Below are positions 4,401 through 61,260 of a DNA stretch of 64,000 bases, one piece after another. This DNA is from Trypanosoma brucei (Eukaryota): contig CM000208.1 of NCBI GenBank assembly GCA_000002445.1, positions 3,936,001-4,000,000 of the forward strand, given 5' to 3'. The translations under genes and the position numbers were made by a program. How positions within the stretch are numbered: the stretch's first letter is position 1; each line of letters begins with the position of its first letter. The notes beneath the pieces were generated by a model. That model saw nothing but the letters and a program-made list of their open reading frames with translations, was not told where the DNA came from and made no database searches.

Positions 4401-5859
4401 TTAAAACAGCAAGGCCACATAAGCAGCATCTATCAGATCCAATTTCTTGTTGACTAGAATAGAGGAATCTTTGCACTTGTTATCTTCCCATTTGCAACCA
4501 TCTTTGCAGTCCTCTTGTTTTTTCTTTTCGGAGCACTTTTAGTCAGTTTTTTTTCTCCTGCAGCTCCATCTTCTGTTCCTGCTGCTTTGGGTGCTTGTTC
4601 TGCTGCTTTTTTGTATCTAATGAGCATCTTTTGTCTTTTTCAGCCGCGGTTTCGTCCCACTTGCATGGGTCTTTGCAGTCGTGTTTTGATTGGTGTTTGT
4701 TACAGTCTGGTTCCTTTTTTTTCGGATGTGCTGTCTGGTCGCCTTCTATTTTTTGAAGCTGAGGCTGGTCTCCTTTGGCCGCCTTAAGATATTCCTGTAT
4801 CGCAATGCTGCGAAGTTGCCTTATTTCTGTTAGGGCTGCTATGTTTTGTGCTTTTTGGACTTTTGCTGTTTTCAGTTTGTCTGCGGCTTCCTGTAGCTTG
4901 GTTAGCCATGGTATCGTCATCTCGCCTCCGCCGTTGGCTTTGTACTTGACGCAGCCAGGGTTGGCGGCGCCGTTGCAGGTAGCCGCGTTTTTCGTGCCGA
5001 GTATTAAATTTTTCGCTTGGCTGCTGCCGGACTTGTCCTTTAAGCCGGTTATGAATGCTCCTATCGTTGCCTGTATTGCTGCTGCGCTAACTTTGGTCTT
5101 TCCGGCTGTTGGGCAGCCATCGAGTAGTTGTGCTGCGCATGTGTGGGCCGAGTTCTGATTCGTGTAGACACATACGCTGGCGCCGGCTGCTCCAAGGCAT
5201 TCGTCGGCATTGTTGCTCCCGCTGGTTGAGCTGCACAGGCAGACCATATCCGAGATCAGCGACATGCCCGGTTTGGCAGCCGCTGCCCCGGGTGCTGAGC
5301 ATGCGTTGGCCCCCGTCGCCCCGAAGCTTTCGCCTGCCGTCTGCGATAGCGATTTGGTCGGGCCGTAGAGTGCTGTCAGCAGCGCTTCTTCCACTTCCGT
5401 TTTCTTTAATGGTTTGTAATCTTCGCGTCTTTCTAGAGCCATCTCCAGGGTTCTATTTATTACAACTGCCGCTGTCTGCCGGGCGTGGCTGTTGAGCGGC
5501 CGGGTGATTTTCAGACCGTGGGCCTCAAGCTTATTTCCTGCAATCTGTTCTTTTGCTGCATGCCAGGCCGCGCGGTGCTTAACCCAATTTGCTTCTGTGA
5601 TCTTGTTATTTGGATCCTCCTTAAAGTCCTGGTTGTAGAAGTCGTCGTCTGCTACTGTTATATTTAGTTCTGTGAGCAAAGTTATTTCCTGACTTATAGC
5701 TGCGCCTTCGGTGTCTTCTGGCGTTTTTGGCTCCCCTCTTGCGATGTTTACAATTGCGCACAGGGTATGGTAGGCTGGTACGGCTTCATTGGCAGTTCCG
5801 CTGGCTTTGTACGCTAGTCGGGCAATGATCGCCAGCATTACAACAATGCTTGACTCCAT
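4401..5859 (-). pseudogene. VSG (A-type), near-intact; C-terminal GPI-signal exon out of frame
   Basis: 438-aa ORF 4543-5859 has a signal peptide, NITVADDDF, EEALLTALYGP, MVCLCSS, GCVKYKANGGGEMTIPW and CKDPCKWDE. The downstream frame 4401-4540 encodes KDGCKWEDNKCKDSSILVNKKLDLIDAAYVALLF*. The frame breaks at an A8 homopolymer with a TAA near 4540-4557. Confidence 0.8.
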
Positions 5860-8770: not shown

Positions 8771-8945
8771 CTATTATTATTATTATAGAATAGTGTTGTG
8801 AGTGTGTGTATATACTAATATTATAACAAGAGCAGTAACAATAGTAATAATAATGATAATAATAATAATGATAATAATAATAGGAGACTGTTGTGAGTGT
8901 GTATATACAAATATTATAATAAGAGCATTGTTTAAGAATAAATGG
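8726..8945 (+). repeat. 70-bp repeats, plus orientation (about 2-3 units)
   Basis: TTA/TAA tracts followed by GAATAGTGTTGTGAGTGTGTGTATATACTAATATTATAACAAGAGCAG and GGAGACTGTTGTGAGTGTGTATATACAAATATTATAATAAGAGCA. Confidence 0.8.
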
Positions 8946-10805: not shown

Positions 10806-11405
10806 TTACAGCACTCGAGCGGCATTGGTATGTGGCATCACATTCCGTACATTTGGTCGGTTCGGAGGTTTTCTGAAGAGTGCATGTCGCAACAGGTGGG
10901 GTTGTTTGTATTGTATTGTTGGTCCTATCGCTGCATGTTTCTGGTTACACCATCGGCACTGTGAGGGCACACTCGGGTTGATCTTTCGCAACATCCATCC
11001 ATAGTGTCTTGAAGACCCAACCCGAAAGCGTGCCAGTGCCGTTTCTTCTTCCCTCGGCAGTTCTTCTTTATGTTTTGTTGGAAAGTGGTTGCCCGTGATA
11101 CCAAACCTATGAGTGTTCTCATGGACTTCTTCCGACCTAAGCACTCGCTTCGCATAAGCAATGATGTCGGGGATCCATGTGTCTCGCAACTGTGGTAAAT
11201 CTGCGGCCTTTTTGGCCATTTCATCACAAACCTCATTCCGTTTCACGCCACAATGGCCAAACACAAATTGCAGTCGGATACGCACCTTCCTTCTCTGAAC
11301 TTGAAGCAGAAGCCTCCATAGTCGTCTTAGAATTGGGTCCGTTACGGCTAGGGGGCCTGTCTGCAGTGCTTTTAACATTGACAGCGAGTCAGAGAAGATG
11401 GACAA
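10806..11405 (-). pseudogene. ingi RNase H domain segment (frame-shifted relative to the RT ORF)
   Basis: 199-aa ORF with RLQFVFGHCGVKRNEVCDEMAKKAA, an RNase H-like motif of ingi/L1Tc elements. Confidence 0.7.
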
Positions 11406-11600
11406 CCTGCTCGGTGTGCTTCTGTATGCCGGAAGCCATTTCAGCAGCCGTTGCAGTCCTATCTCTAATGCTACGCATTCCGCTCTGTAACTGCATTAGA
11501 GTTCCCCTGCTCCGGTTTTGGGTGCGCAAATCAGTGTATTGTTTCTATAGAGCAGGGCAGCTGCTCCGGACTCCTCACCGAGGGACACGGATCCATCAGT

Positions 11601-14600
11601 TCACAATTCGTAGTGCTCTCGTCGCGGTGGCTCCTTCCCCCTCCGTGAAAAATGCCGTGCAATCCACTTTTCGGAAGCCTCCCTTTTGACATCGTCAGGG
11701 TCATCAGCGCACACAGGCTTTATCTGCGTGTGAAATAGTCGTCGGCAGCTGTGGCGGAGCGTCGATGTCTCTAGTGGGTGCTCGCGTGGCTCAATGCGGA
11801 GGTGGGGATAGGACCGCATGATGCGGGAGTGTAGGGCTCTGACTGGGTGTTTGCTGTGATATACTTCCTCAGAACTGCGACGCAAACATCCGCCTCGTGA
11901 CTCACACATCAGCATGAATTTCATGATGCGCACAAGAGTGGTCGTCTTGAGTGGCAGGAGGTTTGCTTCCAGCAGAGAGTCCTCATTGCGCGTCCCATGC
12001 GGTATGCTAGCTATGATGCGACTGGCTTTGTGTTGCGCTGCTGCAAGGAGGTCGCGACTTCGTTCCGAAGCGTCCCAGTACCATACCTCAATGCCATACA
12101 TGGTGTGTGCCTGTGTGAGTGCTAGATAAAAAGCTCTCAGCACTTGTCGTCTTGGCCCCCATGTAGAAGCTGAGATGGTTGCTATCTGCAGTGGTCTGAA
12201 GTCCATCTTGCGTCTCGTTTCGGCCGTATGTGTTGCCATCCCCTGCAGACACTGGAATGTTACTCCTAGAAGCTTCGGTGTCCTGTCAGCTCCTATTCTT
12301 TCACCGTCCAGTTGTAATGTAAGGGGGTGGCGCTCTATACACCCGAAGAGTGTGCACTTTGTTTTCGCTACGTTGACAGACATGAAGTACTCTTTTGACC
12401 ACTGTAACACTACGTTGAGGCCGCATTGCAGTGTGTGGTTGATGACATCCCTCTCTGTGTGGCTCGCAAGTAGCGTTAGGTCGTCTGCAAAGAATCCGTG
12501 CTGCAGTAATGGCACTTCTGCAAGGCGTTGGCTCAACGAGTTCATGACAATAATGAACATGATTGGGCCAAGGACAGTTCCTTGTGGCACTCCTCGCTCA
12601 AATGTTCTGCTTCTGGAAAGCTTCTCCTTGAATCTCACTCTGCCAGTTCGGTTACTCAGAAATGATACGCACCACTTCACAATGTGGGGTGATACCTTCA
12701 TTCTGTGCATTTCCCTCGCAGTTTTGTCGTGGTCTACTGTATCGAATGCCTTCTCGTAGTCAACAAATACAGCACCCGTACGATATTGGTGCGTTGGACG
12801 GCAGAGGGCAGCGCGGACGTGCAGCAGTTGTTCGAGTGTTGAGCATCCGGGGCGAAAGCCTGATTGCTGCGGCGTCAGCTGGGACTCAACAGTGTCTCTA
12901 AGTCTCGCGGCAATTGTGTGCTCCATGACTTTGCAGAGACAGCTCGTGAGCGTCACAGGCCTGTAAGAATCGAGGTCCTCCGCCTTTTTTCCGGCCTTCA
13001 GGATGGGGATGATAACACCAGTCTTCCATGCAGGCGGGACGACTCCCGTTCGTAGGCTCTCATTGAATAGCCTCAGAACAACATTCAGCGCTGTTCTACC
13101 GAGATGTTGCAGTGCCTCGTTGTATAAGCAATCATGTCCGGCTGCGGATCCACTCGGTAGCAGTTTGATCAATCTCCGTAGTTCAGCCATCGTGATGGGA
13201 CTGAACTCACTCGCTATCGTCTTTATGGGTGCCGGTGGGTGTGAGTCGGGGTGCCTTCTTGCGCGGGACGAGTACAGTTTACTGAACCTCTCAGCTTGAC
13301 GGTAGTCCGTGATGGCCGCGTTATCTACAAGTACAGCCGGTGTTGTTAGTGGTCGTGGCGCATATATCTTCTTGACAATGTGCCAACTGCAGCGGTCTGA
13401 CACCGCAAGTCTGGAGCATAGCGTGCTCCATCTCTTCTTTGTGGTACGGTCCAGGATCTGCTTACGCGTGGCTACCAACTTTTCCCTTCGGTGGGAGGGT
13501 CCGCATCCAGCGATCTCTTCATCGAGTTTCGCGAGCTCAGGTGTCCAATGTGGTGGCGTTGCTCTGCAGCCACGGGGGACGGAGACCTTCGTCGCAATGC
13601 GGATGGCGGAGCTCAATTTCTGTTCCAGGGTGTTGACGTTCTTCTCTCTACCAATTTTCCTGCAGAGCTCGTCAACCTTGAGACGGAAATTCCTCCAGTC
13701 AGCTTTTAGCCATGCGTACATGGGCTTTCGAAGCCGCGGGCAACTCAGTGCATCTGTGTCGTCTCCAACGATAACGTCGAAAAATATGTGATGGTGATCG
13801 CTATCGGGAGAATACAGCGATGTCCACGTGTACACTGTGCAATTCCTTGACAGTGTCACATCAGGGGTGGACTCCCCGTGGTGGCGCGCGTACCTGGTGC
13901 ACTCACCAGTGTTGCAGACCAGAAACTGGTTGTCAATGCACCGCTGTGTGAGGGTTTCACCCTTGGTATTTGGTGGGCTCGCGCGATCCCATGCCAACGC
14001 GTGTGCGTTAGCGTCTGCACCGATGAGCTGGGCACCGTCAGTCGTCAGAAGCGTATCTAGGTCAGTTGCCGTGAAGGTGTGTTTTGGTGGGATGTATGCC
14101 GACGTGACAGTCAGCGCCGTTCCACGTGCAAGGTGAATTGTTGCATGCACTTGTTCAATGCGACCAACAAGGGCCATACCGGTCTCGACTGGTAGGTCCT
14201 CCCTCACTAGTATTGATACACCACCTCCTTTGCAGTTACAAGCTATTCCGTGATGTTGGTAGCCAGCAACGCTAAAGCAACCCGCCTCTCCAGGCGTCAT
14301 CCTTGTCTCGCTCAACAGACAAAAGGCGATCCGCTCATCAACAAGGGTTTTGTGGAGTGCTAATCTCTTTCCTTGAGATAGCCCGGCGCAGTTCCACTGC
14401 ATCCCGCACAACGACGGGCCGGGATTCTCTTCCACATCACCGGAAAGCAGCATCTTAGTGCGGATGATACTGCTGATGGCACGCTGGTACGTGCCCCGGG
14501 ACCGACAAATGAAGAACGGTGTCCCAACAAGACGCTGCTGATCCCTGTGCTGTATGATGCCGTAGCCGGAGCACAGCAGTGTTCCCCATGAAAGGAACGC

Positions 14601-14669
14601 TGCTGGCTCTTGGCTTCCCCCGATGATACGGGGTACTGGACCCTGGAACCACGTTGAGGTGGCCGGCAT
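11601..14669 (-). CDS. ingi ORF: N-terminal 2A peptide, AP endonuclease and reverse transcriptase polyprotein (intact 1022-aa frame)
   Basis: MLLSGDVEENPGP (2A consensus D[V/I]ExNPGP) at aa 72-84. The AP endonuclease/RT region contains the RT signature HGFFADDLTLLASH. Confidence 0.85.
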   Translation of the reverse strand: MPATSTWFQGPVPRIIGGSQEPAAFLSWGTLLCSGYGIIQHRDQQRLVGTPFFICRSRGTYQRAISSIIRTKMLLSGDVEENPGPSLCGMQWNCAGLSQGKRLALHKTLVDERIAFCLLSETRMTPGEAGCFSVAGYQHHGIACNCKGGGVSILVREDLPVETGMALVGRIEQVHATIHLARGTALTVTSAYIPPKHTFTATDLDTLLTTDGAQLIGADANAHALAWDRASPPNTKGETLTQRCIDNQFLVCNTGECTRYARHHGESTPDVTLSRNCTVYTWTSLYSPDSDHHHIFFDVIVGDDTDALSCPRLRKPMYAWLKADWRNFRLKVDELCRKIGREKNVNTLEQKLSSAIRIATKVSVPRGCRATPPHWTPELAKLDEEIAGCGPSHRREKLVATRKQILDRTTKKRWSTLCSRLAVSDRCSWHIVKKIYAPRPLTTPAVLVDNAAITDYRQAERFSKLYSSRARRHPDSHPPAPIKTIASEFSPITMAELRRLIKLLPSGSAAGHDCLYNEALQHLGRTALNVVLRLFNESLRTGVVPPAWKTGVIIPILKAGKKAEDLDSYRPVTLTSCLCKVMEHTIAARLRDTVESQLTPQQSGFRPGCSTLEQLLHVRAALCRPTHQYRTGAVFVDYEKAFDTVDHDKTAREMHRMKVSPHIVKWCVSFLSNRTGRVRFKEKLSRSRTFERGVPQGTVLGPIMFIIVMNSLSQRLAEVPLLQHGFFADDLTLLASHTERDVINHTLQCGLNVVLQWSKEYFMSVNVAKTKCTLFGCIERHPLTLQLDGERIGADRTPKLLGVTFQCLQGMATHTAETRRKMDFRPLQIATISASTWGPRRQVLRAFYLALTQAHTMYGIEVWYWDASERSRDLLAAAQHKASRIIASIPHGTRNEDSLLEANLLPLKTTTLVRIMKFMLMCESRGGCLRRSSEEVYHSKHPVRALHSRIMRSYPHLRIEPREHPLETSTLRHSCRRLFHTQIKPVCADDPDDVKREASEKWIARHFSRRGKEPPRREHYEL
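14418..14441 (-). other. 2A self-cleaving (ribosome-skipping) peptide DVEENPGP within ingi ORF
   Basis: Reverse complement of ggccgggattctcttccacatc encodes DVEENPGP, followed by S. Confidence 0.85.
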
Positions 14670-14949: not shown

Positions 14950-15543
14950 TGTAAGGTAAAATAGAGAAATCACAAACACGGTAGATAACTTCAAATAACT
15001 AACTTTTGCAGCCGACTTATACACCGCGGCAAGCCTAATAGAGAAAAGACAGGCAGCACTCAAAAAGGCTGAAGCAACAAAGGCTGCAATTGCGGCAGCA
15101 GTTGAATTAGCATACGGCGCCCACGGTGAAATAGCTGCTCTCACTGCACTAACGGCAGTGACACAACCCCCGGTAAAACAAAATGACATAAAAGACAGTG
15201 ACGCAGTTTTAAACAAGCAAAAAGAATGCGAAGGAATAACAAAAGCAGCTGACTGCAAAAACAATGGAAACTGCAAATGGGAAGGACCTGATGAAAAAGA
15301 CGGAAAACACTGCAAATTTAATATGACAAAGTAGAGCAACAAGAAACACATGCAGGAACTGGAGGGATACAGACAGGTAAAAAGTGTTCTGATCACACTA
15401 AAAAAGAGGCATGTGAGGCAGAGAATGTGGGACTAGCCCCGGGACAAAAGGCTAAATGTGGCTGGATTGAAGAAAAGTGCAAAAATTCTAGTTTTCTCGT
15501 CAATAAGAAATTGGCTGTTAGTATGGATGCCATCTTAATATAA
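14950..15543 (+). pseudogene. VSG 3' fragment (C-terminal domain + GPI signal), 5'-truncated at the ingi boundary
   Basis: Encodes ...ECEGITKAADCKNNGNCKWEGPDEKDGKHCKFNMTK*, then (after a frameshift) ...[54 protein letters not shown]. There is no N-terminal domain upstream before the ingi end. Confidence 0.75.
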
Positions 15544-15618
15544 GGAGAGTTTCAAGGATTTTCCCCCAACTTTTTGAAATTTATGAAATTTGCCATTTTG
15601 AGAGAATTTGCTAAATTT

Positions 15619-15634
15619 TGATATATTTTAACAC
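15619..15634 (+). promoter_or_regulatory. VSG 3'UTR 16-mer, perfect (TGATATATTTTAACAC)
   Basis: Exact match about 75 bp after the VSG stop. Confidence 0.85.
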
Positions 15635-15794
15635 CTTTTGATAAAATTTTTAAAATGTTGAAAAATATGAAATTTTGATAAAATGTATATGATTGTGGCA
15701 TGTGGGTATAAGGAAGTATCGTGATAATGTATAAAAATTAGTGCTATTATAATTTGATTTATTTCACTTATTTTACGGGAATCACTTAAGGTCA

Positions 15795-15900: not shown

Positions 15901-16538
15901 CATGCTGTGTAAAACTAAGTGGATAAGTAAATGAAAGCACATAAAACAATGTAAATGGGGTTTTGAGAGCAAGTAAGTGAGTCGAACTATGGAAGACACG
16001 GAACGAAAAAGAGTATTACGAATTTTATTACAAAAACACACAGAAAGAATGAAAGCAAATGATGTGAATTATGCGGAATTTTAAACCTATCGTCACGGTG
16101 GACGTGATGAAACGGAAGCAGAAATGGTGGAGACTGTGGTCTTTTATTTATGACAGCGGAAAAGTTCTTTATAAACGAAAAATTGTCAGTTTGTACATTT
16201 GAATTATAGTATTCGGAAAAAATATAAAGAAATAACTGTAGAAGGAAATGGCTAGCTTTTTCTGAACATATAATGACGCAGCATATGCCGTCGGCTGAAC
16301 AGCCATGAATTTCAACACCGAAAGAATAACAAAATGCAGAGACAATGGGTAAAAGAGAGTTCAGTATTTTTTAACACAATCTGCAACTTATGTTTTTCCA
16401 GAAAAATTGCCGACAACAAAGTTGTATTGCCTCATGAGTGAGGACATAACGCGAGATACCTGTAAAAACAAGCAGAACCCCTGAAAAAAAATGCCAATAA
16501 ACAACGCCTACCATAACCAACTTAAGTGTTAGCAAAAG

Positions 16539-17899
16539 ATGCGGAAAAGCAATCTGACAACATTATTTCGAGTGTTGTTATTAACCGGTGTCTATCCTAT
16601 AACAAATGTACACGCCACGAACGAACACAAAGGGTTAACGGTAGAAACGGCAGTAAAGGTCTGCCTTTTCAGCAACAGGATGAAGGAAACGGCAGGTTAT
16701 GTCGCAGATAAAACAAGAGAGTTTGTCAGCAACACAGACCGACTACGACAGCTAGCAAGTGACATAACAGCGGCGGCACACGGCGACAGCAGCCAATGGA
16801 CACCAGGAGCGAAGTTCACGGCACTTCTTGCAGCAAAGACAGCGACGGACCGGCAGACCGTTACGGAACAACTCACAACAGAAGCGACAAAAGCGGCGGC
16901 AACATACGGAATGTTAGCCGGGCGCATTGAAGAGTTTGTCCAAGTTTTTTATCAAGCGCACAGACAGCAAGGCACAAGGTGCTGGTACAAAACCGGCAGC
17001 GAACGGACAGCAGCCAACGTCCCATGCCTAGATGCCAATGACAAGCTCAAAAAGGCGGCATCACTAGAAAACAAGGCAAGGCCCGACCTAAATACGCCGT
17101 ACAAAGCGCTTGGAAACCTGCAGAGCGGCGGAGCCCACACCAGCGAAACTAACTGCAAACTTCAGAACGGAGCCGCTGACAAAAATGTATACCTTAACAG
17201 CCAAACCAACAATCCGCAAATTAAATGGGGAGGCGGACTCTTTACAACCCCCAACAGCGACCGCGTGATAGCAAGCACAGACTGGGGGCCCAATGGCAAA
17301 GCAGGTGTAACAGCGGGCACATAAAAGGAGTGCGAAAACAACATAGCAGCATTTGACAGAACCGCCGCAACTGTAGAAGCCGATACGCAAATGCAAATCA
17401 AACTGGAAGGTGACGAGACCCCAACACCCGACCCAAAAGATATAGCAAAGGACGAATTCCACAAAGATATCCCCAAAAATAAACTAACGATAACGGCGGC
17501 AGACCTCAAAACAGTGCATGCCAAACTACAGCGATTCATAAAAAGCCACAACAAGGAGGAAGAGAATCTGCGAGGAGCACAGCTGCAGTTTTTGCAACAG
17601 CAGCTGCAATTAAACAAAACGACATGCGAACTAGGGGCAAAACACACCCCGAAAGATTATTGTCAAGTCACTGATACAGAACCACCAAAGTGCAACGACA
17701 AGGAACAGGAAGAATGCAGCACCACTAAAGGTTTCGAATGGAAAAACGACACTTGCAAGATCATCGAAAAAAGACAAAAAGAGGTAGCAGAAAAAGCAGA
17801 CCAAGAAAAGGAGGGAAGGATGGACAAACAAACATCACAGGAAGCAATTCTTTTGTCATTAAAGCTTCCACTCTTTTTCTTGCATTTTTGCCTCTGTAA
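16539..17899 (+). pseudogene. VSG pseudogene (frameshifted)
   Basis: 261-aa N-domain ORF with a signal peptide and cysteine pattern, ending at 17324. The continuation 17391-17924 is in another frame and has a CxC-rich C-domain (CNDKEQEECSTTKGFEWKNDTCKI). The GPI-signal region ends at TAA 17897-17899. Confidence 0.75.
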
Positions 17900-17921: not shown

Positions 17922-17937
17922 TGATATATTTTAACAC
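17922..17937 (+). promoter_or_regulatory. VSG 3'UTR 16-mer, perfect
   Basis: TGATATATTTTAACAC. Confidence 0.85.
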
Positions 17938-18334
17938 GTAAAAGTTATCCTGAATAATAATGTGTGTTTCTGTAAAGTTTCTGACTCTAGCTGTTATTTT
18001 TTCCTGATGGAAGAAATTCTCTTTCTTTCATCTTTTTAAAAATTTTTAGGGTTAGGTTTTTTAACCATTTTTAATTTTATTTTTGCGTATTTTGGCGTTT
18101 TTATTGCCAATTTTTTAATTTTCGAAACTTACAATTTTAGAAAGTTTGCTATACTTTAATAAACATAGATATATTTTAAAACTTTGAAAAAAACATAAAT
18201 TGAAGAAATGAGAAAATTTTTAAAAATACGAAAATTTTATTAAAATATGTACAGTAGTTGCCTATAGGTGTAATGTATTATAATGATATTGTATTAACAA
18301 TGAATGTTATTCTAATACGGTTCATTTTTTATGG

Positions 18335-20865: not shown

Positions 20866-21065
<200 letters not shown>

Positions 21066-24572: not shown

Positions 24573-24837
24573 TTTGACAGTTATATATAATTTTAAGTAT
24601 GTATAAGCATATTTTCTCAATTTTATGGAATTTGTAAAATTGCTTAAATTTTATATATTTGAACGCCTTTGTAAAACTTTTGCAACTGGTTAAAAATTTT
24701 TAAAAGCTCAAAGATATAAAAACTTGAAATTTTTGTAAATTCTTCTTAATATATATCTATTGCTGCGGAGCTTTATGGTGATAGAATATGGAGAGTGTAT
24801 TCTGTTATAAGTATGTATATACTTACGTTTAATAAGA

Positions 24838-24925
24838 GCAACAACAATAATAATAGTAATAATGATAATAATAATAATAATAGAAGAGTGTTATGAGTGT
24901 GTGTATACGAATATTATAATAAGGG
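24838..24925 (+). repeat. 70-bp repeat
   Basis: AATAATAATAGTAATAATGATAATAATAATAATAATAGAAGAGTGTTATGAGTGTGTGTATACGAATATTATAATAAGGG. Confidence 0.8.
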
Positions 24926-25612
24926 TAGTGGTTGAAGGGCAATACACGGCCAAAATAGAGACACTTGCAAGTATAAAAAACGCAATGTTTGTAAGTGAGT
25001 AGGCGAACACTGTGGATTACATTGAACGAAGTGCAGAAATACAAAGACAGTTAGATATGGAATATGTGTGGGCTCAAACGAAACCACGAAGGTCAGCATC
25101 ATTATACATGTGGTGGTTGTGCCGAGGCCAATTTAGGAACAGGAAGACTCTAGTGTACAGACCAAATTTATATCGGCACGGGATACGCAACAACATTGGA
25201 TTTGGTGAGGAAGTTACACCACTGCGAAATTTAGGAAAGCAGATAGTCGGCATATTTACAGCACAAAGGCTTAAAATTTATAGTAAACGTGAGGACAACT
25301 AGTGTATCTGGCTATTTAATTTTTATCATAATGTACATAGGGGTTCATGTAGCGTCTAGCAGCAGTTGTCCTTGAATATAAATTAAAAAAACAAAAAAGG
25401 CAGGTCCTTGATGAGATATAATCTTAAAACACTGAGAACACACTGTTTGTCAGCTACATCATAAAAATATCAGAGCGCTGCATATATATATATATTTGTA
25501 AACATTACTTCATAACTAATCATATTTTCTGCACAACTGCCTTCTTCTATCAAAATATTCTATCATTTTATAAGAATTTTAAAGTCTTTCCTTAGTATAG
25601 AAGTATTGTCTT

Positions 25613-26715
25613 ATGAAATATATAGAAAGAATTCATGCAATAATAGGCTGTTTATCCTTTATTGTTATGGGGATTAATTTATTTACGTCACTATATAACT
25701 TGTTTTGTGAGGATTATCCTATTTCACTTGAAATAATAGAAAATGACTATATGAGATTTGTTACGCAGGATGTAAGGAGGATTTGGAAAAGCAAAGATTA
25801 TTTGGTTGTAGCTCTAATACCTTTAATAGATAATAACGAGATTTTAGAAGAAGGAATATTCAAAGAGAAACGTGTTGGAGTTATCCTGAAGTGGCAAGAA
25901 AGTCAAATAATTTTACAGGGAAGTTGCTTGTAGTATATGCTCTTTCACCTTACACAAATAACAATTGCAAACTCAGAGAAATTGCTGCAACAGAGGGTTA
26001 TGTAAATCAGGATATTATTATTTTACCCGTTTGCGATGTCGACCCTACAACAAATAAGAAAGTGGGAGAAGCTGGTAATTGGGGTTGGGAAGCAGAACTC
26101 ACGATGAGTAGAAAAACGTATCTGTGGTTCAAATTTTCAGTAGAGATATTCAAGAAAACTAATCCCTATATAATAAAAGCAGATAACGATATATTTATGA
26201 GAGTGCCATTGTATCTAAAATATCTAGAGCTGCTTCCAAGAGAAAAATTAAATATGGGGAGAGCAGTTGGATATTATAAAGATTTTAGTGATGAAATTAC
26301 ATGGCACACCATTGGTTATGCATCGACACTATCTAGGGATGTAGTTAAGAAAATTGTTGATTATGACCCTCTGAAAAAATTAGTAAAAGCACCAATTAAG
26401 TTCAGAAATTTTGAATCATATATGGATTTTAGAGCACTTAATGAAGATACTATGGTTGGAGAGGTAATAAGGAGTAAATTGAAATTTGAGGGTTTATTAA
26501 CTGTGGATATGCAGGACTGTCATTTTGTAATGCATGCGCAAACTCGGGGACCAACCGAGGCCAAAAGTAGTTGCAACATCATAGCATTTCATCATATCTT
26601 GCCTTACCAGTATCAACAGCTGCCCCTAACATCGAACACATCAATTTGTGCAGGCAAACGAAACCCAGTGTTACGCACCATAAACGATCAATGGGCAGAG
26701 TTCACTTGTCAATGA
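25613..26715 (+). pseudogene. Glycosyltransferase pseudogene copy 1 (trypanosome UDP-Gal/UDP-GlcNAc-dependent GT, GT31/GT67-like; frameshifted)
   Basis: Two overlapping ORFs in different frames (25613-25933 and 25891-26715). An N-terminal hydrophobic anchor suggests a type II membrane protein. YIIKADNDIFMRVPLYLKYLELL resembles the beta-3-glycosyltransferase LLKxDDDVFV (DxD) region. Confidence 0.6.
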
Positions 26716-27199: not shown

Positions 27200-28740
27200 A
27201 TGGTCAAACAACTCATGACAAGCGCCATCTTAGTGCTACTTGTAGCAACAAAAGGTGATGCAATAGTGGCAGCAGGTGACAATGCAGCAGCAGCAGGCGC
27301 CCTTTGTGAAGTTCTGGCATTAGGCGCCGGGCGGAGTTTGCTAACTCAACCTAAAGAAAACGCTGACACAGCGCACCACAGCCTCCTAGACTTGAACATG
27401 TCGCTTGCAGGTGAAAGTTGGAGGTCTGTCTTTGAGGAATCAGGCAAAAAGGGAACATATCCGGCAGCGAAGCCACAGCGCTACGACACCAACAAAGATT
27501 GGGATACAAAATGGAAGGAATGGTCGCAAACGGCTCAAAGGCTAAAGGACGCTGATGGCATACAGCAGAAACTCAAAGAACACAAACTCCATTCCAGAAC
27601 AGTCCAGCATTTGGCAGTAGCCAAGCAAGCGGTCCTACAGCTAGCCGATGAACAATCAAAACTTGCAGCGGAACTTCAAAGGATAAAGGACACAAAGAAA
27701 ATCCTAGCTAACGATCAGCTAAGAGAAAAGATAAATACAGCTCTCTATGGCGAAAACGTCGCCACAGAAAACACACTATCACCTAACAAGGTATTTGACG
27801 CAACAGCCGGCAGCGACAGGAAAGCCAACTGCGACGGCACAGCCAAAGACAACAAAGCGAAAACAGTGATGGCAGCGCTGGTGTGCGTATGCAGCGAGGA
27901 TTCATCCAGCGGCCTAGACCAAGCGTGAAACAAGCATCTAACCCTAAATCAGCAATGGACATCGAGCAGTCAACCAACAAACGATGTGATGCAAGAGCTA
28001 AGAAACCTCTGCCCGACAGCAAAGCCGACAACCATAACGGCAGCCAGACTGGCGAGCATAATAAGCAATGTTAAGACTCACTTCATCGCAAGCTCATCAG
28101 CAACGGTATTAGGAAAACTGGATACGGGAGCAGCCTGCAGTGGTTCTGCCAACAGCGGGCTCTGCTTAAAATACACGGACGTCCACCAAGTGGCAGCAAA
28201 CACGATAGACGACATCAGTTGGATAGCTGCTCTAAACCAGATAGTAAACGACATAAAAGACCACGAAGAGAGCGTAGCGGCAGTAGACAGCATCGGCCGC
28301 CAGCTAAGCGCAAACACTGAAAAAGCAGGAGCCTTTATCGCCAGCATAGAGCAGTACACGCAGGCACAAGCAGCAGTATCACCAACAACGAATCCCAACC
28401 CCGCACAGGCTCAGAAAAACGATCAAAATGCAAAAAATGCTTGCGCCCAACACAGGTCTAACACAAGCTGCACAGATGAAGGCTGCAAATGGGATGGGAC
28501 TGAAGAAACCAAAGGAAAGTGCAAACCTAAAGATGGGGAAGTACAGAAAACTCAAGGAACAGGAGAGGGAGCTGCAGAAACAAATGCCGAAGGCAAAAAG
28601 TGCTCCGAAAAGACAAAGCAAGAGGAATGAAAAGATGACTGCAAATGGGAAAATAATGCTTGCATAAATTCCAGTTTTCTTGTAAACAAACACTTCGCCC
28701 TCAGCATGGTTTCTGCTGCATTTGTGGCCTTGCTTTTTTA
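27200..28740 (+). pseudogene. VSG pseudogene (A-type; frameshifted)
   Basis: ORF 27200-27928 with a signal peptide, ALCEVLALG, LNMSLAGESW, REKINTALYGE and ALVCVCSED. ORF 27986-28630 carries the C-domain with CTDEGCKWDGTEETKGKCKPKDG. The last frame has [36 protein letters not shown]. Confidence 0.8.
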
Positions 28741-28791
28741 ATTAACCCCCCCTTTTATAAAAATTTTCCCCCTGCTAAAATTTTGCTACAC

Positions 28792-28807
28792 TGATATATT
28801 TTAACAC
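28792..28807 (+). promoter_or_regulatory. VSG 3'UTR 16-mer, perfect
   Basis: TGATATATTTTAACAC. Confidence 0.85.
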
Positions 28808-28943
28808 CTAAAACCAGCTGAGATTTTTTGTTTGTTGTTTGTAAAAATGGTGATTCTGTAAAAAATATTTTCTGGCAACTAAAATTTTTTTCTCTTTTTC
28901 CCGTTTTTTTTTGAGTTTTTGTAGGTAGGTAGGAGGGGGGTAG

Positions 28944-29078
28944 TTAGGTTAGTTGGGTTAGGGTTAGGGTTAGGGTTAGGGTTAGGGTTAGGGTTAGGGT
29001 TAGGGTTAGGGTTAGGGTATTGAGGGTTAAGGTGGTGAGGGTTAGGGTATTGAGGGTTAAGGTGGTGAGGGTTAGGGT
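28944..29078 (+). repeat. Interstitial telomeric repeat tract: about 11 perfect TTAGGG units, then two copies of a degenerate variant unit
   Basis: GGTTAGGGTTAGGG... from about 28955-29018, then GGGTATTGAGGGTTAAGGTGGTGAGGGTTAG twice. The G-rich strand reads 5'->3' on the plus strand, the polarity expected for a chromosome end lying to the right. Confidence 0.9.
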
Positions 29079-29536
29079 TTTTACTTTTTGGATCATTTTT
29101 TATTTCACTTCTTATTAATTTTTTATTTTTTTATAATTCGTTAATTTTTCATTGTAAGTGATGCAGAGGCCTTTTTTGATGCGCAATCTCAAACACATTC
29201 GTACAGTATTCATCTTGGTCTTCATTTTTTTCGCATGAAGCATCAACGTGGTTTATTACGCTTTTGCTTATTTTTCTCGTGTCAATTTTACCTCTGCGTT
29301 TTGCGCTGCGCGAGGCTTCAATTTTTTAAAACGCTAGCGCGTGGCAATTTCGCTAGGAGAAACGATTTGCTATTCAGGTGCCCTAAAAATTTTTTTATTA
29401 TTTGAAACTGGCATAATATGGAGTTTGGCAGCTAAAGCCAGCCGACATAGCAGCTTGGACAGGTCGTACCTTGGCACAGCAACCCAACAAATGCGAGCGG
29501 AGCTCTCAAACAAATAGCTGAAGCAGCAGAAGGACA

Positions 29537-30040
29537 ATGCAGGTGCATCTCCATGCCCTAACAGATCCGTCGGAAGTCGTCAAAAATCTTAACGAAGAGT
29601 CCCATAATCACTACGGACATAAATACACAGCAAAAAAAAACAATCCAACAATAGAAGAACAGAATAAATGCAAACTAAAAAACACAACTGCTGAAGAATA
29701 CGCAAACGAGGACTGCGAATATAATGCTGCCAAAAACACAAGAATGCAAACCTAAACCAGGAAGAGAAAACACAGCAGCAGGAACAAGAGAGACAATTAC
29801 CGTGGTAGATTAAAATAAACACCGATCCCAGAAAGCATGTGAAGCGGAAAACAAGGATGTCAAACCTAGTTACAAAAAAGTATGTAGATGAATTGACTGT
29901 GTTGATGGTACGGGAAAGCTTCTCAAGCCCGAGTGCCGCTATTCCAGCTCTCTCATCAATAAGAAATTGGCTCTGGGTATAGCTGCTGCTTTGACGGGTT
30001 TGGCTACACTCTATAATTATAAAATTATAGTACTTTAAGG
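29537..30040 (+). pseudogene. VSG C-terminal fragment (degenerate), lacking an N-domain
   Basis: Cysteine-rich C-domain-like ORF 29537-29755, then ...IDCVDGTGKLLKPECRYSSSLINKKLALGIAAALTGLATL (degenerate GPI signal). VSG-type 3'UTR follows. No 70-bp repeat or N-domain lies between it and the telomeric tract. Confidence 0.55.
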
Positions 30041-30284
30041 ATTTTTTAAATTTCATGAATTTTGTGAAACTCTTCTATGTTGAGAGGATTTGGTAAAATT
30101 TTATGAAATTTAACATATTATATCACTTTTTTAAAACCTTTGCGAAATATGAAAAATAATAAATTGTTTTCAAAAGAATACGTAATTTTTATACGAAAGC
30201 GACCTCTAGGAGCAAAGATGTAACAAAGTAAGGTAATGTGGTTTGAAAATGAGTGCTATTCTAATTTAGTTAATTTTTGTTTAT

Positions 30285-30380
30285 TCTTCTTCATTTTATA
30301 GATGTCAATGGAGACTATAATAAAGATGATAACAATAGGAGTGTATTGTGAGTGTGTCTTTACTAATATTATAGTAAGGT
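30285..30380 (+). repeat. 70-bp repeat (single unit)
   Basis: ATAAAGATGATAACAATAGGAGTGTATTGTGAGTGTGTCTTTACTAATATTATAGTAAGG. Confidence 0.7.
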
Positions 30381-31697
30381 TAGTGGTAGAAACTAAATAG
30401 ATGAAAAATATAGAAGGGCTTCAGACAATGACAATAGTGCAATGTGAGTGGGGCAGCGGATGAGTGAGAGAGCGCGGGGAATATTTTTATGAAAGGGAAT
30501 GCAGAAAGACAAAGGGAAAAAGATGGAATATGCGAAGTTTCAAACACATTAAAGGCAATGTACATCATTGCACACAAAAGAAGGGTACGGAGATCATTAA
30601 TGAAAAAAGTAAACCTTACAAAAGTAGTTGAGTTACTTTTTTATCAGAAACTGACAAGGAATGAAGCAACAAAAACAGCTGACTAAAGATCCAGTAAAGA
30701 CCGGCGATAAAAGAATAAGAACACGCTTATATGAAATGATGAAAGATCTATATTAAGTAAAGACAATCAATACTGATACTCCACAAATTTAAGACATGTA
30801 TAAAGGCCAGACATTAAGACATCTAAAGAAACGAATAATTAACATAAGAGTTGTGACTGATGCAAAAATAATGTATCGTATTAACAAGGTGGAAGCAGTA
30901 AGGAAAGCACTTTCTTTCTCCAAAATTCCAGGTCTTAAGGAAAAGTGAACCATATCCATACTACAATATCTAAAAAAGAAGCACAACACCATCTTTGTGA
31001 GAGATAAGCAACAGCGGTATCTGGTCATTCGGAGTCATGAGGATACATTGAAACTGCTAGATGGTAGAAGACATTTAAAAACACAAATATAAAATGTCTT
31101 GGGTATACCAAAATCTGCGGTATTTTAAAGAATGACAGAAAGAAAATTCTAGTCGTGTATGAAAGAACTATATAAATGAACACAGTATGATATAGGTTGA
31201 AATTAGCAAGAGACATTAGCAAAAAACAAAATTTACGTTAAACGTTTTTAGAATTTTTAACTCTTTCTACGGTAGAACTAACTTTTTCACAAGTTAAACA
31301 CGTAAAAAACGCTACCATTTAGTGTGGTAATTTACATATTTATGTATATCTTTATGCCAATTTTTTTAATTTGCGTTTTTTTCTTTTAACACATGCTTTT
31401 CGCTTGTTTGCCGTGGTTTTCTCATTTTATTTTGTGCTCTCAATGGCCTGACAGCGATATAGAGGCCGATCCTTTGTTGAAATTTTTTTTTACTGGAGTG
31501 GCGGAATTTAACGTCGCCACAGCATAGAAAGGAAGAACACCACGACCACATAACCAAATGTTGCTTTAAAACCTAAAGATCCAGACATATGACAACGATG
31601 TGAAGTCTACGAACTATTTCCTGTAACTGACATAGGGAAGCAACCAAATAAATCGCTGCAACGCTAAGACTAGTCGCATAACTGTTTCCTCACTTAC

Positions 31698-33555: not shown

Positions 33556-33905
<350 letters not shown>

Positions 33906-50740: not shown

Positions 50741-52486
50741 TTTATGGTAAATATCTGGTGGGAAAAAAAAGAAACAGTTAAACCTATGGGTGAGTAAAGG
50801 TAGGTAAGGGAGTATGAAAGAACGAAGAATATCATCAAAGAAAAGCATAACCACAAAGAGAGTAATGAAGAGGGAAGAACATGGTATATTCGCAGTTTTG
50901 TACACATATGATTATGGGCAGCATCATAGAAAAGGACATGATGAAGACGACAATGAGAAAAGGAGAAAGTGCAGTGTAAAGCCAAAATATTTCACTACGT
51001 TATTCATAGAAGCATTGACTGAAGATAAAAAGGAGGGGACATGTAGAGTCAAGCGGATTAATGTGTGAAAGTACAGCAGATGATAATGACACATCAAAAA
51101 AGAAAAGTAGGAGCCCATTTATGTGTTGTATTACTCAAAACTGAATATATGCGACGGCGGATATGATTGAATCTATAGCTTTTAATCTGATGGAGTATCT
51201 TAATGTCCAACAGTGAATAAACAGAACCTGGAGCTGTAAGAAGGAATTGGGTAAGTGTGGGATAATATTTAAGTCCTCTTTTTATCAAATATGATAATAA
51301 TAGCTACCATATGTGTAAAACAAAATAAAAATAGTCAGGCTAATTTTTAAACTAAGATTAACAATATATTAGTGTGTAAAGTAAATTAAAAATAAAAAAA
51401 CAGAAACTGCATTCAATAGAAGATGTGTGCTTGGCATACGATCTCTATGAAGTGGAAACAATCAGTTACAATATTCTACCAATTCGGTATTTGTACGCTT
51501 TCCAGACAATAAGAGCTTTTAAGGGAGTGTAATTTATGTAAAAGTAGAAGTTGATTCACAGCTGACGAAGCGTGTTAACGGAGATAAAAGGAAGAGGTAG
51601 CTACGTACAGAGCACAACTTTCAATTTTTTAACCGCAAACGTTATAGAGCAGAATATAAAGACCTGAAGGAAAAGGTCAACCAATTTGGCAGTAAGAAGA
51701 AGGATTGAAATTATATTTCGAGGGAAAGAGACAGTGGAAAATTGATAGATGACGTAGAGCAATGACGACCATAAATTTCACATTTTTAGACATAAATACA
51801 GAACAAGGCATATTGGATTTATAAAGTGGAAAATTGTCGTTTAACAGCGTGATTTTTATAACTTTCCACCGAAGACGAACAACTTTGTGTTACGTTGTAA
51901 ATCACATGGAATGTCAGGCAGCAAAAAGAGGTTTAACAAACCTAATCAAGAAATTAAAAGAGGAATGAACACCCAAAACATTTGTAAAAATATCTATAGA
52001 AACATTATTCCTTACAACGGAACGTCAGAAAATCAATATATGACTCTTGTGCGTTCGTGATAGCTGGAATAACATCAATAATTGGGCATTGAGAACAGAA
52101 GATGAAAAAAATGACCCTCAGTCCTAACCGATGATTACAATAATTATATACATGTCCAGATACCATCCCAACTCAACAAGATATTTGACTATACACATTC
52201 ATGGGGTTCTCTAGTTTGTACTGTTCGGCTGGACAAAACGATCAAACACAACAAACACACGCGCCAAAAGCCGCCAGCAGGGCAAGCGATATCCTTTCGT
52301 AGACAGCAGCAGACAGTGAAGGCAGCTTCTGTAGTTGTGCGTAAAAAAAAGCAAGAAACCTCACATGTAAATCATTTAAAACAAAGACCAAACCCTTTTA
52401 AATGTCCTGAACATCAAAAAAACCCGCAACTCTACGACTTACAAGTTTGTTCAATCAAAAGCAAAAGTACCAGTAAAAAACTTGCA

Positions 52487-54063
52487 ATGTGCGACAAATT
52501 TGTTGTTGTGCTACTACTAGCAAGTGGCAGCCTAGCTGACCCTACAACGATGGGCAACGACGCCACGACTTGGTGTCACGAGAGAGCCTACGTCAAGGTG
52601 ATGATTGAGACAATCGAAGACGAAAGAACAGAACGCACGGAGCGGATCAAAGAGGACACCAGGCTAGCGGCGATATTGAACCTACCGGCGGAACACGAAG
52701 CGGCAACTGGGCCGTCCAAAACACGCCAAATACTCTCTATCGCTGCGAAGCAGATGCTTGTAAAAAAGGGACAAAAGCTGGTCGATTTCTTGACAGCAAC
52801 ACAGTGGCCGTTAAAGTATCTTCGGGCGCGACTCAAACTATATGACAATGCAGAGGTAGTTGCGGCGGACAGCGTGCCAACGTTAGGCAACGGCCAGCAC
52901 AGCAGCAACGCCATGGACGCAAACCCCTGCTCATTACACCTAGCGATTAAACAGACAGGAGACAGCATCTGCAGCAGACCGACGCCAGCAGGAGCAACGA
53001 AAGCGGCAGTCAGAGCGAAGATCAACAAATTTACAAAAGCAAAAGCAGTCGACCGTCTCACAGTACCAGCACTTATAACAGGCGGAAAAGCAGAACTGAA
53101 AGCCGGCGACAGCAGCAAATCTTGGACCGGCGTGCAAAACATAGCCGGCTGCTGCAGCTGCACAACAGGCTGCGGCACACACGTCAAGATAACCAGCATA
53201 TCTCAAGCGACAGCAGCAACGAAGGACCGTGAAGCAGCAACTACGCTACCAACAACCGATACCGACTATCCTCAAGATGACGCCGCAGCCGCCAACCCAA
53301 CCCACCAAAACAAAGCCAAGCTGCTGGCAGTATACAAAAAGCTCAAAGAAGCGTTTGCAAACAAGCCACTGAAACTAACGGATATAACGTTAGCTCAAAT
53401 ATAGACACTAGCGAGGAAAGCCGGCGTCGACGCGGCATTATTAGACCCGATAGAAAAACTCGGCAAAGCAGGAACCGAAGCAAGTAACTCTAAACTAGAC
53501 GCAGAAATGGACAGGATTTACAACTCTGGCGCAGACTTCAAAACCAATTTCATTGATAATGCAAAAACTATCAAAATAAAGATCACTGTTGAGGCAGGAA
53601 GCGAACCCATGGAACTGCAGCAGATTGTAGCCAAATGTTAAAATTTCCAAAGCATTTGCATATCTGAAGAAACACCAGTTGAAAAAACAACTCGCTGAGA
53701 AATCCGCAGCGACTACAACGGCGACAAAATCAGCCTCTCAAACCTGTCAGACCAAAAACAAAAAGGCAGACTGCAAAGACGGCGATGGTTGTAAATGGAA
53801 CAGTACTGAGACAAACGAAGGGGATTTCTGCAAACCGAAAAAGGAAGAAGGATAAACAAACACAGAAACAGGAACAGGAGAAGGAGCAGCAGGGAAAGAG
53901 GAAAAGAAAGAAGAGAAATGCAAAGGGAAAGAGCAAAAACACTACAAAGATGGATGCAAATGGGATGGAAAATAATGCTTGCAAAGATTCCAGTATTCTT
54001 GTCGATAAGAGATTGGCTCTGATATCTGCTAACTTTATGTGTTTGGTAGCATTTTATTATTGA
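52487..54063 (+). pseudogene. VSG pseudogene (B-type-like N-domain; in-frame TAG at 53402-53404 plus C-terminal frameshifts)
   Basis: MCDKFVVVLLLASGSLA signal peptide and a cysteine-rich N-domain (CSLHLAIKQTGDSICS, GCCSCTTGCGTH). The C-domain has CQTKNKKADCKDGDGCKWNSTETNEGDFCKPKKEEG. The terminal ORF 53785-54063 has ...CKDSSILVDKRLALISANFMCLVAFYY*. Confidence 0.75.
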
Positions 54064-57779: not shown

Positions 57780-58312
<533 letters not shown>

Positions 58313-59772: not shown

Positions 59773-61260
59773 ATGCAGTGCCTAGCCACAGCAGTATTTT
59801 TTTTGCTAGCATTTCTTTACAGCACAGAGCAGGCTGTTGGCTCGAAAAAAGCTAATGCACAGTGCAAAAGCGCCTGCGGCTGTAAATCGCGACTGCTTAA
59901 GCGGTTAGACCTTTACACAAGCAAGTACGCCGACGGCATAAGCAATGAACGCAGAAATACCGAAGCCCACGCAAAACTCGTCGCGGCAGCGCTGGCAGCC
60001 CCACCTTCAATGAGGAAGAAGATCTTACCTTTACTAGTGGCAGCGGGCGATATCCTTGATACTTGTCGGGCTGATCTTGCAACAGCACGGCCCCTTGTGC
60101 AAACGGCAATGGCAAAAGTCACAGAAGCTGCCGGAGTCTACAATACACTGCAGAAGTTAGAAGACAACCTCGGCGAAGTAAAGATCGAATTTGGCGGCAG
60201 CGACCTCAACCTACCCGTAACCAAATTTACAACAAAATCTCTAGGCGCTCTAAAACAAGCAAGCTGCACTGGCCCGGATGGCGAACCGCAAGGACTCAAA
60301 CTAGCCTTCGAACACGAAGAAAACGAACCATAACCAGCAAAACTAATAACACACAGCCACATCGACCTGACCTGCAGGACGGGCGCAAGCCAAAACACGG
60401 CCTGCCACGGAAACGTAATCAACAACCAAGCTCACATAACAATAGGGCATAGCTTTAGCAAAGCGGCAAAAGACGAAAGCGAATAGTGGGCGGCGGCAGC
60501 CGCAAAGAAAAAAAAACCATACACAGCAACGAAGCCGATTTCCTCGGCGGCAACGCGACGGTGGCGCACGAAGCGCTCAAAGCAATACGGTCAGCAGGAG
60601 CCACGACGCCCTGCAGCTCGCTCATAACAGATTTCAATGCTGTTAGAAGCAACCCCAAATTCAAAATAATGGTAATCAAGGCATTGCTGAACAAGCCACA
60701 AGCGGAGAAGGAAAGTGACGCAACACCCGCCGAAGTAACTGAGGCGATTAACACTGCCTACGGTCGGGAAGGCGCCGACTACAAGACCAAAACATGGAAA
60801 GATATAGGTTCAACTCTAATTCCCAAGGCAGATCCGTCAGGGGAAAAAACAGACACAATCGACAAGCTCTCAAGCTTGCCACTATGGGCCGACGCAATAG
60901 CACGAATCCTCCTACAACAAACGACAAAGCAAGAGGAACAATCAATAAAAACCTCCAGCGACGAAACAACAAACAAAGAATGCGACAAACACACTGCTAA
61001 AACCGAAGGAGAGTGCAACAAACTCGGATGTGACTATGACGCCGAAAATAAAAAATGCAAACCTAAATCAGAAAAAGAAACCACAGCGGCAGGAAAAAAA
61101 GATAGAGCTGCGGGAGAAGCTGGATGTGCAAAGTATGGAACTGAGAAAACTAAATGCGAAGCTAACAAAAGCTGCAGATGGGAAACCGAAACTTTTAAAA
61201 ATTAAACTTTTCTTTAATAAAATTTGCTTTGATTTCTTCTACCTTTGTTAGTTTGGCGTA
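59773..61260 (+). pseudogene. VSG pseudogene (B-type; frameshifted)
   Basis: ORF 59773-60333 has the signal peptide MQCLATAVFFLLAFLYS and AQCKSACGCK. The middle frame is 60334-60485. ORF 60486-61205 has the C-domain ECDKHTAKTEGECNKLGCDYDAENKKCKPK...GCAKYGTEKTKCEANKSCRWE. A degenerate hydrophobic tail follows. Confidence 0.75.

Follow-up and report, generated by a model that had tools for sequence, protein, structure and literature searches.

An interstitial telomeric tract in a Trypanosoma brucei VSG array, probably a telomere-flank relic spread by cassette duplication

Within a 64,000-nt stretch of Trypanosoma brucei DNA (assembly GCA_000002445.1, contig CM000208.1, positions 3,936,001 to 4,000,000; hereinafter the window), tandem copies of the organism's own telomere repeat, TTAGGG, form a non-random tract behind a VSG pseudogene. 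The tract belongs with the interstitial telomeric sequences that are subtelomeric and duplication-borne: derived from the flank of a telomere-adjacent VSG, it is not itself such a flank today. We consider it likely that it represents a relic of a telomere flank that was internalised and then spread by duplication within the arrays, the present locus probably never having been a chromosome end. Read in this way, the tract offers direct sequence evidence that chromosome-end DNA has moved into silent VSG arrays and then spread by cassette duplication. A limited literature search found no account of such TTAGGG tracts in the VSG arrays of T. brucei, and an earlier report may exist.

The comparison loci all come from assemblies of the T. 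equiperdum group and none from TREU927, Lister 427 or any other T. brucei assembly. They include the 3711-bp T. equiperdum OVI contig CZPT02001133.1 (L001), which was reached via a relative of the product of the pseudogene, a further T. equiperdum OVI locus (L002), the IVM-t1 chromosome CM010678.1 (L003), the T. b. equiperdum IVM-t1 contig QSBY01000012.1 (L005) and the T. equiperdum OVI contig CZPT02001992.1 (L007). The sample comprises about 25 VSG 3′ ends in 168 kb (the window and L001-L008), partly picked by homology, so that the frequency of the module described below is uncertain.

The tract and its place in the array

Telomere-type sequence amounts to about 160 bp in total and can be read directly (28921-29077) as a degenerate lead-in followed by a hexamer run and two variant units (Table 1). 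Rather than running to a chromosome end, the repeats give way at 29078 to T-rich non-telomeric DNA. The original prediction of about 11 perfect TTAGGG units caught a real tract and overcounted it slightly, as a regular-expression search finds 10 perfect units, the eleventh being a partial one; TRF reports GGGTTA x10.7 with a 100% match over 28955-29018. The duplicated degenerate variant unit that had been described alongside is indeed there, as two identical 30-bp copies. The 12-mer TTAGGGTTAGGG, allowing at most one mismatch, occurs 12 times against an expectation of 0.13, a count reached by 0 of 100 shuffles. The G-rich strand of the repeats coincides with the coding strand of the upstream VSG pseudogene; the tract is co-oriented with the gene and, as direct reading confirms, its G-rich strand points away from it.

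Table 1. Features of the VSG cassette, the tract and the downstream sequence in the window, with identity to the L001 copy
Feature	Position	Strand	Evidence or context	Identity with L001
70-bp-repeat copy, 5′ boundary of the VSG cassette	24830-24936	+	about 2.26 kb upstream of the ATG	
VSG pseudogene, b-type N-terminal domain and VSG C-terminal domain, GPI-signal tail	27200-28741	+	translation, Pfam	N-terminal domain 86.6%; C-terminal domain and UTR 93.0%
Conserved VSG 3′UTR 16-mer TGATATATTTTAACAC	28792-28807	+	exact match	
Telomere-type proximal 3′ flank, T-rich, ...GTGATTCTGTAAAAAATATTTTCTGGCAACTAAAATTTTTTTCTC...CGTTTTTTTTTGAG	28808-28920	+	homology to L005 and L001	94.2%
Degenerate G-rich lead-in GTAGGTAGGTAGGAGGGGGGTAGTTAGGTTAGTTGGG	28921-28957	+	aligns with L001 and with ...GGGGGCAGTTAGGTTAGTTAGGG of L005/L007	
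Ten perfect TTAGGG repeats	28958-29017	+	regular expression, exactly 10 as assembled; TRF	
Two identical 30-bp telomere-derived variant units TATTGAGGGTTAAGGTGGTGAGGGTTAGGG	29018-29047, 29048-29077	+	identical copies; one copy in L001	
Distal element, non-coding, about 320 bp, joined to the tract	29078-29400	+	shared with other VSG 3′ flanks elsewhere	96.6% (L001 2033-2354)
Frame-shifted VSG C-terminal fragment, GPI-signal-like tail …SSSLINKKLALGIAAALTGLATL	29401-30000	+	three-frame translation	93.0%
Region beyond the VSG fragment				87.9%
70-bp-repeat-like piece, start of the next cassette	30317-30391	+	BLAST of 30061-30900	

The VSG upstream of the tract shows matches to the Pfam domains VSG_B (E=8.7e-60) and Trypan_glycop_C (E=1.5e-22). 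The closest relatives of its product are T. brucei VSG-1184 (83%) and VSG 1125.4119 (72%); a homology search with the VSG C-terminal domain alone returned no match. Two in-frame TGA stops (27926-27928 and 28628-28630) interrupt the reading frame, which is therefore that of a pseudogene. From its stop to the first perfect hexamer there are 216 nt, in keeping with the predicted distance of about 200 bp, and the 16-mer that had been named along with the stop is present as an exact match. Across the window, this 16-mer has 9 matches with at most two mismatches as compared to 0.12 expected. The 70-bp-repeat copy at the 5′ boundary of the cassette is recognised by TRF (24830-24882) and by a core match with a single mismatch (24892-24922), and it shows an 80% match to the 70-bp-like piece that starts the next cassette. 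The BLAST search with 30061-30900, which identified the latter piece, aligned query positions 257-331 with 24862-24936, 8862-8923 and 33814-33875 at 80-84%. A plus-strand ORF lying between the 70-bp repeat and the pseudogene (25891-26715) has no Pfam match at E<=0.01.

On the other side of the tract comes the distal element, of which no second copy was found within the window, and then the frame-shifted VSG fragment, whose tail matches the C-terminal ends of other VSGs both in the window and in the comparison loci. Further plus-strand VSG domains, belonging to genes and pseudogenes, are found at 31698, 35939, 39634, 42958 and 56128, as anticipated by the statement that another 35 kb or so of array follows. 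Since the VSG array carries on past the tract, the latter is internal to the array. Sizeable plus-strand ORFs at 52316-53404, 59773-60333 and 60486-61205 have no Pfam match at E<=0.001. Toward the left of the window, a minus-strand ORF of 1022 aa (11601-14669) with reverse-transcriptase and endonuclease domains represents an ingi-type non-LTR retrotransposon. It is situated at a strand switch, with the VSGs to its left on the minus strand (such as 4543-5859 and a 16-mer at 817-832) and those to its right on the plus strand.

Kinship with telomere-adjacent VSG flanks

The telomeric ancestry of the tract is well supported by its sequence similarity to VSG flanks at which contigs of two assemblies end. 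In L005, the last VSG stop is 298 bp from the contig end, which reads ...GGGGGCAGTTAGGTTAGTTAGGG, then TTAGGG repeated about 4-5 times, and finally 2.2 copies of TTATCGGGTTCAGGTGTTTCGGGTTAGGG, a 29-bp unit that TRF recovers with a period of 29 and a 100% match. The VSG flank of L007 is as in L005, and that contig likewise stops inside a TTAGGG run. One VSG with its 3′ flank (L005 11588-11849; L007 3251-3443) ends two independent assemblies inside the repeats, and these ends can usefully serve for comparison when the proximal structure of telomere-adjacent VSG flanks is studied. Both are contig ends that may not be chromosome ends, as a long repeat, too, can make an assembler stop, and the repeat left at the end of L005 measures only about 90 bp; that two different assemblies stop at this repeat argues that it is long or terminal there.

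The proximal flank in the window aligns with L005 11643-11763 at 77% over 130 nt (E=5e-19; z=15.6-18.4 against block shuffles). The tracts of the two loci begin at an equal aligned position, each with a AGTTAGGTTAGTT(A)GGG lead-in, and the whole tract in the window scores z=25.7 against the terminal repeats of L005. The 30-bp unit of the window is a variant of the 29-bp unit of L005, from which it differs at several positions. Such 29-bp telomere-derived repeats were reportedly seen beside T. brucei telomeres by Blackburn and Challoner in 1984, and again, it is said, by Weiden and colleagues in 1991.

In 17 expression-site clones, the distance from the VSG to the telomere repeats was 200-1590 nt (Hertz-Fowler et al., PMC2567434), a range that includes the 216 nt observed here. 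The prediction that the locus has the geometry of a telomere-adjacent VSG thus holds, in the 16-mer, the spacing and the direction of the G-rich strand, and it is extended by the homology of the flank, lead-in, hexamers and 29/30-bp units to the contig-ending flanks of L005 and L007. What the window has in common with a telomere-adjacent T. brucei VSG 3′ flank is the succession of VSG, 16-mer, T-rich flank of about 150 nt, lead-in, (TTAGGG)n and 29/30-bp units. Unlike in such a flank, about 160 bp of telomere-type sequence is followed here by non-telomeric DNA and 35 kb of array, and the unit measures 30 rather than 29 bp.

Copies of the module and the origin of the tract

The closest copy, L001, is collinear with window positions 27464-30927 in a block of at least 3.4 kb, at 87-97% identity by segment (Table 1). 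This divergence appears greater than one would expect of strict orthologues among T. brucei-group genomes, and L001 may be a recent paralogue instead. Judging by the collinearity, the block made up of the VSG, the tract, the distal element and the VSG fragment travels as one unit.

More distant copies are found in L002 and L003. In L002, there are two tandem copies of the distal element (L002a/b), each about 340 nt past a 16-mer (at 15190 and 17585, respectively). These copies (15532-15725 and 17930-18122) match the distal element of the window at about 70% over 203 nt (E about 1e-19 to 1e-20; z=27-30), and a collinear 21/26 match begins about 20 nt after the junction between tract and distal element (z about 3.5). 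At the position of the tract, the L002 flanks display a decayed G-rich telomere-like stretch, GAAGGTAGGAGG...GAGGTTAGGGATGGTTATTCGGGTTCC, with z=5.4 against the terminal tract. The flank at L003:174 is arranged as in L002: its G-rich stretch, ...GTTAAGTTAGTTAGGAATGTTGGGTAG...GGTAGGGTTACCCGGTTAGGGTTA, has decayed, and a VSG C-terminal fragment comes after it. The middle part of this flank scores z=6.2 against the tract of the window. Direct homology between the distal element of the window and L003:174 was not detected (z=0.1), the two being linked transitively via L002 (z=9.7). The decayed G-rich stretches of L002b and L003:174 score z=4-6 against the terminal tract, and the lead-in, though decayed, is still recognisable in both. 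The module of L002 (15190-18700) is itself present as a tandem duplicate of 94.6% identity that flanks an intact a-type VSG (16101-17540). In the same locus, about 375 bp separate the distal element from a complete VSG downstream, and no 70-bp repeat intervenes.

A further flank, L003:10976 (10976-11420), combines a telomere-type proximal flank (z=10.6 against L005) with a distal element to which it is directly fused, the G-rich middle being missing together with about 150 bp beyond the repeats themselves. While this is the nearest thing to an "empty site" among these loci, it is most simply read as a derived deletion, because the relic is retained both in L002a/b, its sister copies, and in all those that are more distant. 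Across 27 16-mer-like sites in 156 kb (the window and L001-L006), only sites of this family exceed the 95th percentile of the background in telomere-likeness. Ordinary array flanks pass from the 16-mer straight into 70-bp repeats and have nothing telomere-like. The tract, with its degenerate and variant repeats, is carried in a duplicated subtelomeric block, of which L001 has a collinear copy and L002 and L003 have diverged copies of the module. As the junction of tract and distal element is common to diverged paralogues, it predates their divergence, and comparison of these copies indicates that the window locus most probably inherited its tract by cassette duplication.

One competitor to this reading is a strict form of the one originally proposed, namely that the tract is a fossil chromosome end at this very position, to whose right 35 kb were added by telomere capture, break-induced replication, fusion or healing. 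It accounts for a geometry and a sequence that are those of a telomere-adjacent VSG flank, and the truncated 3′ remnant of another VSG after the tract is as expected of a breakpoint. However, the junction is not peculiar to the locus but is shared with L001 (96.6%), with the diverged L002a/b (about 70%, z about 28) and, transitively, with L003, which makes it older than the window copy. Moreover, the only near-orthologous copy found of the position, that of T. equiperdum OVI in L001, is internal too and not a chromosome end. Local healing or fusion likewise finds no support: simple end fusion is unlikely as T. brucei is reported to lack NHEJ (PMC10813129), and a head-to-head fusion, in which (TTAGGG)n would abut (CCCTAA)n, is excluded because the entire 64,000-nt window is devoid of CCCTAA tandem repeats. 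Overall, we regard a locus-specific fossil end as unlikely.

Instead, we favor an internalised and duplicated telomere flank, for which we posit the following course. The source would be a genuine 3′ flank of a telomere-adjacent VSG of T. brucei, represented here by its first 160 bp or so. A telomeric VSG cassette carrying a short telomere stub was likely recombined or captured into the array by a pathway that we can only reconstruct indirectly, and its flank would thereby have been joined to internal array DNA, that is, to the distal element of about 320 bp and the 3′ remnant of another VSG. This might have happened by conversion or break-induced copying whose distal end was resolved outside the usual VSG 3′ homology or, equally, by a broken and shortened chromosome end capturing array sequence. 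The module would then have multiplied by VSG cassette duplication, and in most copies the telomeric part would have decayed by point mutation or been deleted. The window copy appears to have undergone recent expansion or homogenisation, because its hexamer run is perfect and its 30-bp unit exactly duplicated; replication slippage or unequal exchange could have brought this about, as could, possibly, conversion from a telomeric copy. We infer the telomere-to-interior direction, a single origin, the part played by slippage and the absence of a selected function from these comparisons, the polarity of the ancestral event resting on parsimony and on the 29-bp repeats that are said to mark chromosome ends.

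Function, other readings and parallels elsewhere

A second possibility is that the tract is a selected functional element, acting as a nucleation site for TRF/TIF2/RAP1 or base J that would contribute to the silencing or compartmentalisation of the array, or as a 3′ homology block or seed that mimics a telomere and would allow an internal VSG to act as a telomere-adjacent donor. Two observations could be taken in its favor: after breaks in a VSG without homologous templates, every activated VSG was directly telomere-adjacent (PMC12137147), so that adjacency to a telomere bears on the choice of donor, and the run is perfect in the window while it has decayed in the paralogues. Against it, premature stops at two points make the associated VSG a pseudogene, and the repeats are decayed or deleted in most copies of the module, which is a signature of neutrality. 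These two features suggest that the tract is neutral and without a selected function, and we consider its selection improbable. Fragility and the seeding of new telomeres, as originally suggested for such tracts, would be candidate properties. In itself, the tract is an expected by-product of subtelomeric recombination, and it sits behind a pseudogene.

By analogy with the telomere-adjacent donors, one may still speculate that a cassette ending in such a stub, with its telomere-type flank, about 60 bp of perfect TTAGGG and 29/30-bp repeats, could serve as a pseudo-telomeric donor, with break-induced replication starting from the 70-bp repeats and ending at the stub, thereby extending the early-activation privilege to internal VSGs. 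Replication could be finished at the stub by second-end capture with the residual telomere of the expression site or by the seeding of telomerase. Conversely, the relics would record the growth of the arrays by repeated capture of telomeric cassettes. We hold this idea to be improbable. The segments 28808-28920 and 29078-29400 provide uniquely mappable flanks, by means of which one can ask whether telomere proteins or base J bind within arrays and whether the tract has an effect on donor choice.

The tract might alternatively have been a short interstitial telomeric sequence of the vertebrate type, inserted during the repair of a double-strand break by telomerase or from reverse-transcribed telomeric RNA. 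This route is documented in primates, rodents and horse, and its products resemble the present tract in being internal, short and perfect TTAGGG runs with length or insertion polymorphism (PMC7215372). A relic-less flank in which the proximal and distal parts are contiguous also exists at L003:10976. However, the vertebrate sequences are pure repeats in continuous unique sequence, whereas the tract here is impure: the contig-terminal flank has the lead-in and the 29/30-bp variant units in common with it, and telomerase would not make these. L003:10976, by parsimony, is a deletion derivative, given the additional 150 bp that it lacks. Such an insertion is accordingly quite improbable as the source of the tract.

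An assembly chimera, in which a telomeric read or contig was mis-joined to the array at 28.9-29.1 kb, is suggested by the fact that telomere-like repeats are classic misjoin points and that the T. equiperdum OVI scaffold itself has an N-gap inside the tract (L001 1925-1934), with the proximal flank repeated on both sides of it. But past this gap L001 is unbroken: proximal flank, lead-in, (TTAGGG)3, one 30-bp unit and distal element follow each other without interruption, and the sequence continues for 1.7 kb in collinearity with the window; the junction is, furthermore, shared by diverged copies. Since L001, an independent assembly, has both tract junctions, an assembly artefact is rejected, and the misjoin named in the original prediction as the way in which it could fail is not borne out. 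We give the chimera next to no credence. That a microsatellite without telomeric ancestry grew in situ from a TTAGGG-like seed arisen by chance is scarcely credible either, for while the perfect units and the exact 30-bp duplication show slippage-type expansion and the window and L001 differ in length, it leaves the homology of the flank, lead-in and variant unit to the contig-terminal flank unexplained.

Microsatellite-type slippage, disfavored as the origin, is better seen as a secondary process that sets the length of a tract derived from a telomere flank. In the window, 10 hexamers and 2 variant units are counted as against 3 and 1 in L001, the N-gap of which makes its own count uncertain. 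As these copies have flanks that are 93-97% identical, the length of the tract is unstable. Thus, telomere stubs stay dynamic after they have become internal, differing in length between near-identical copies.

Telomere-like sequences with comparable settings are known from other eukaryotes. In S. cerevisiae, interstitial TG1-3 tracts occur where X meets Y′ or one tandem Y′ element meets the next, and they are bound by Rap1 and Tbf1, which have insulator or silencing effects there. As with the tract described here, their length ranges from tens of bp to about 100 bp, they separate tandemly duplicated subtelomeric units while pointing the same way as a telomere, and recombination among chromosome ends passes them on together with the unit. 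Unlike it, they form a regular boundary of every Y′, whereas in the VSG arrays the relic is present in some cassettes and mostly decayed. Human subtelomeres contain degenerate, head-to-tail and length-polymorphic (TTAGGG)n islands at the boundaries of duplicons, which are similar in that TTAGGG-like stretches bound subtelomeric blocks that have moved among chromosome ends. In that case, however, the islands separate large duplicons with many types of genes, while here one antigen-gene cassette, about 5 kb long, makes up the unit. In Plasmodium knowlesi, going by the passage of PMC9131526 that cites Pain et al. 2008, telomere-like repeats occur with internal SICAvar/pir islands, and the likeness is that of a variant-antigen family located away from chromosome ends together with telomere-like repeats. 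The repeats of that passage differ in being numerous, scattered in the chromosome cores and organised in complex families, whereas the tract that we describe is single and short, belongs to a subtelomeric array and is demonstrably homologous to a terminal flank.

Two other sites in the window were considered on the basis of by-eye alignment as members of the module, the flanks at 17922 and 20621. Shuffle tests removed 20621; they left 17922 with a weak relationship to the module (z 3-5) and nothing homologous to the distal element. In this latter flank, TTAGGGTTAGGT is found at 18046-18057, 124 nt past the VSG 16-mer at 17922-17937, and is followed by a second 3′UTR-like piece with a degenerate 16-mer (18167-18182) and then by 70-bp-repeat sequence. 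This motif may represent a second, nearly erased telomere relic. The window further contains nearly pure (ATA/TAA)n runs at 57801-58274, 33649-33834 and 20872-21020 (158, 62 and 50 copies, respectively) beside the cores of 70-bp repeats. These long runs are expanded TAA-rich parts of the 70-bp repeats and may be unstable.
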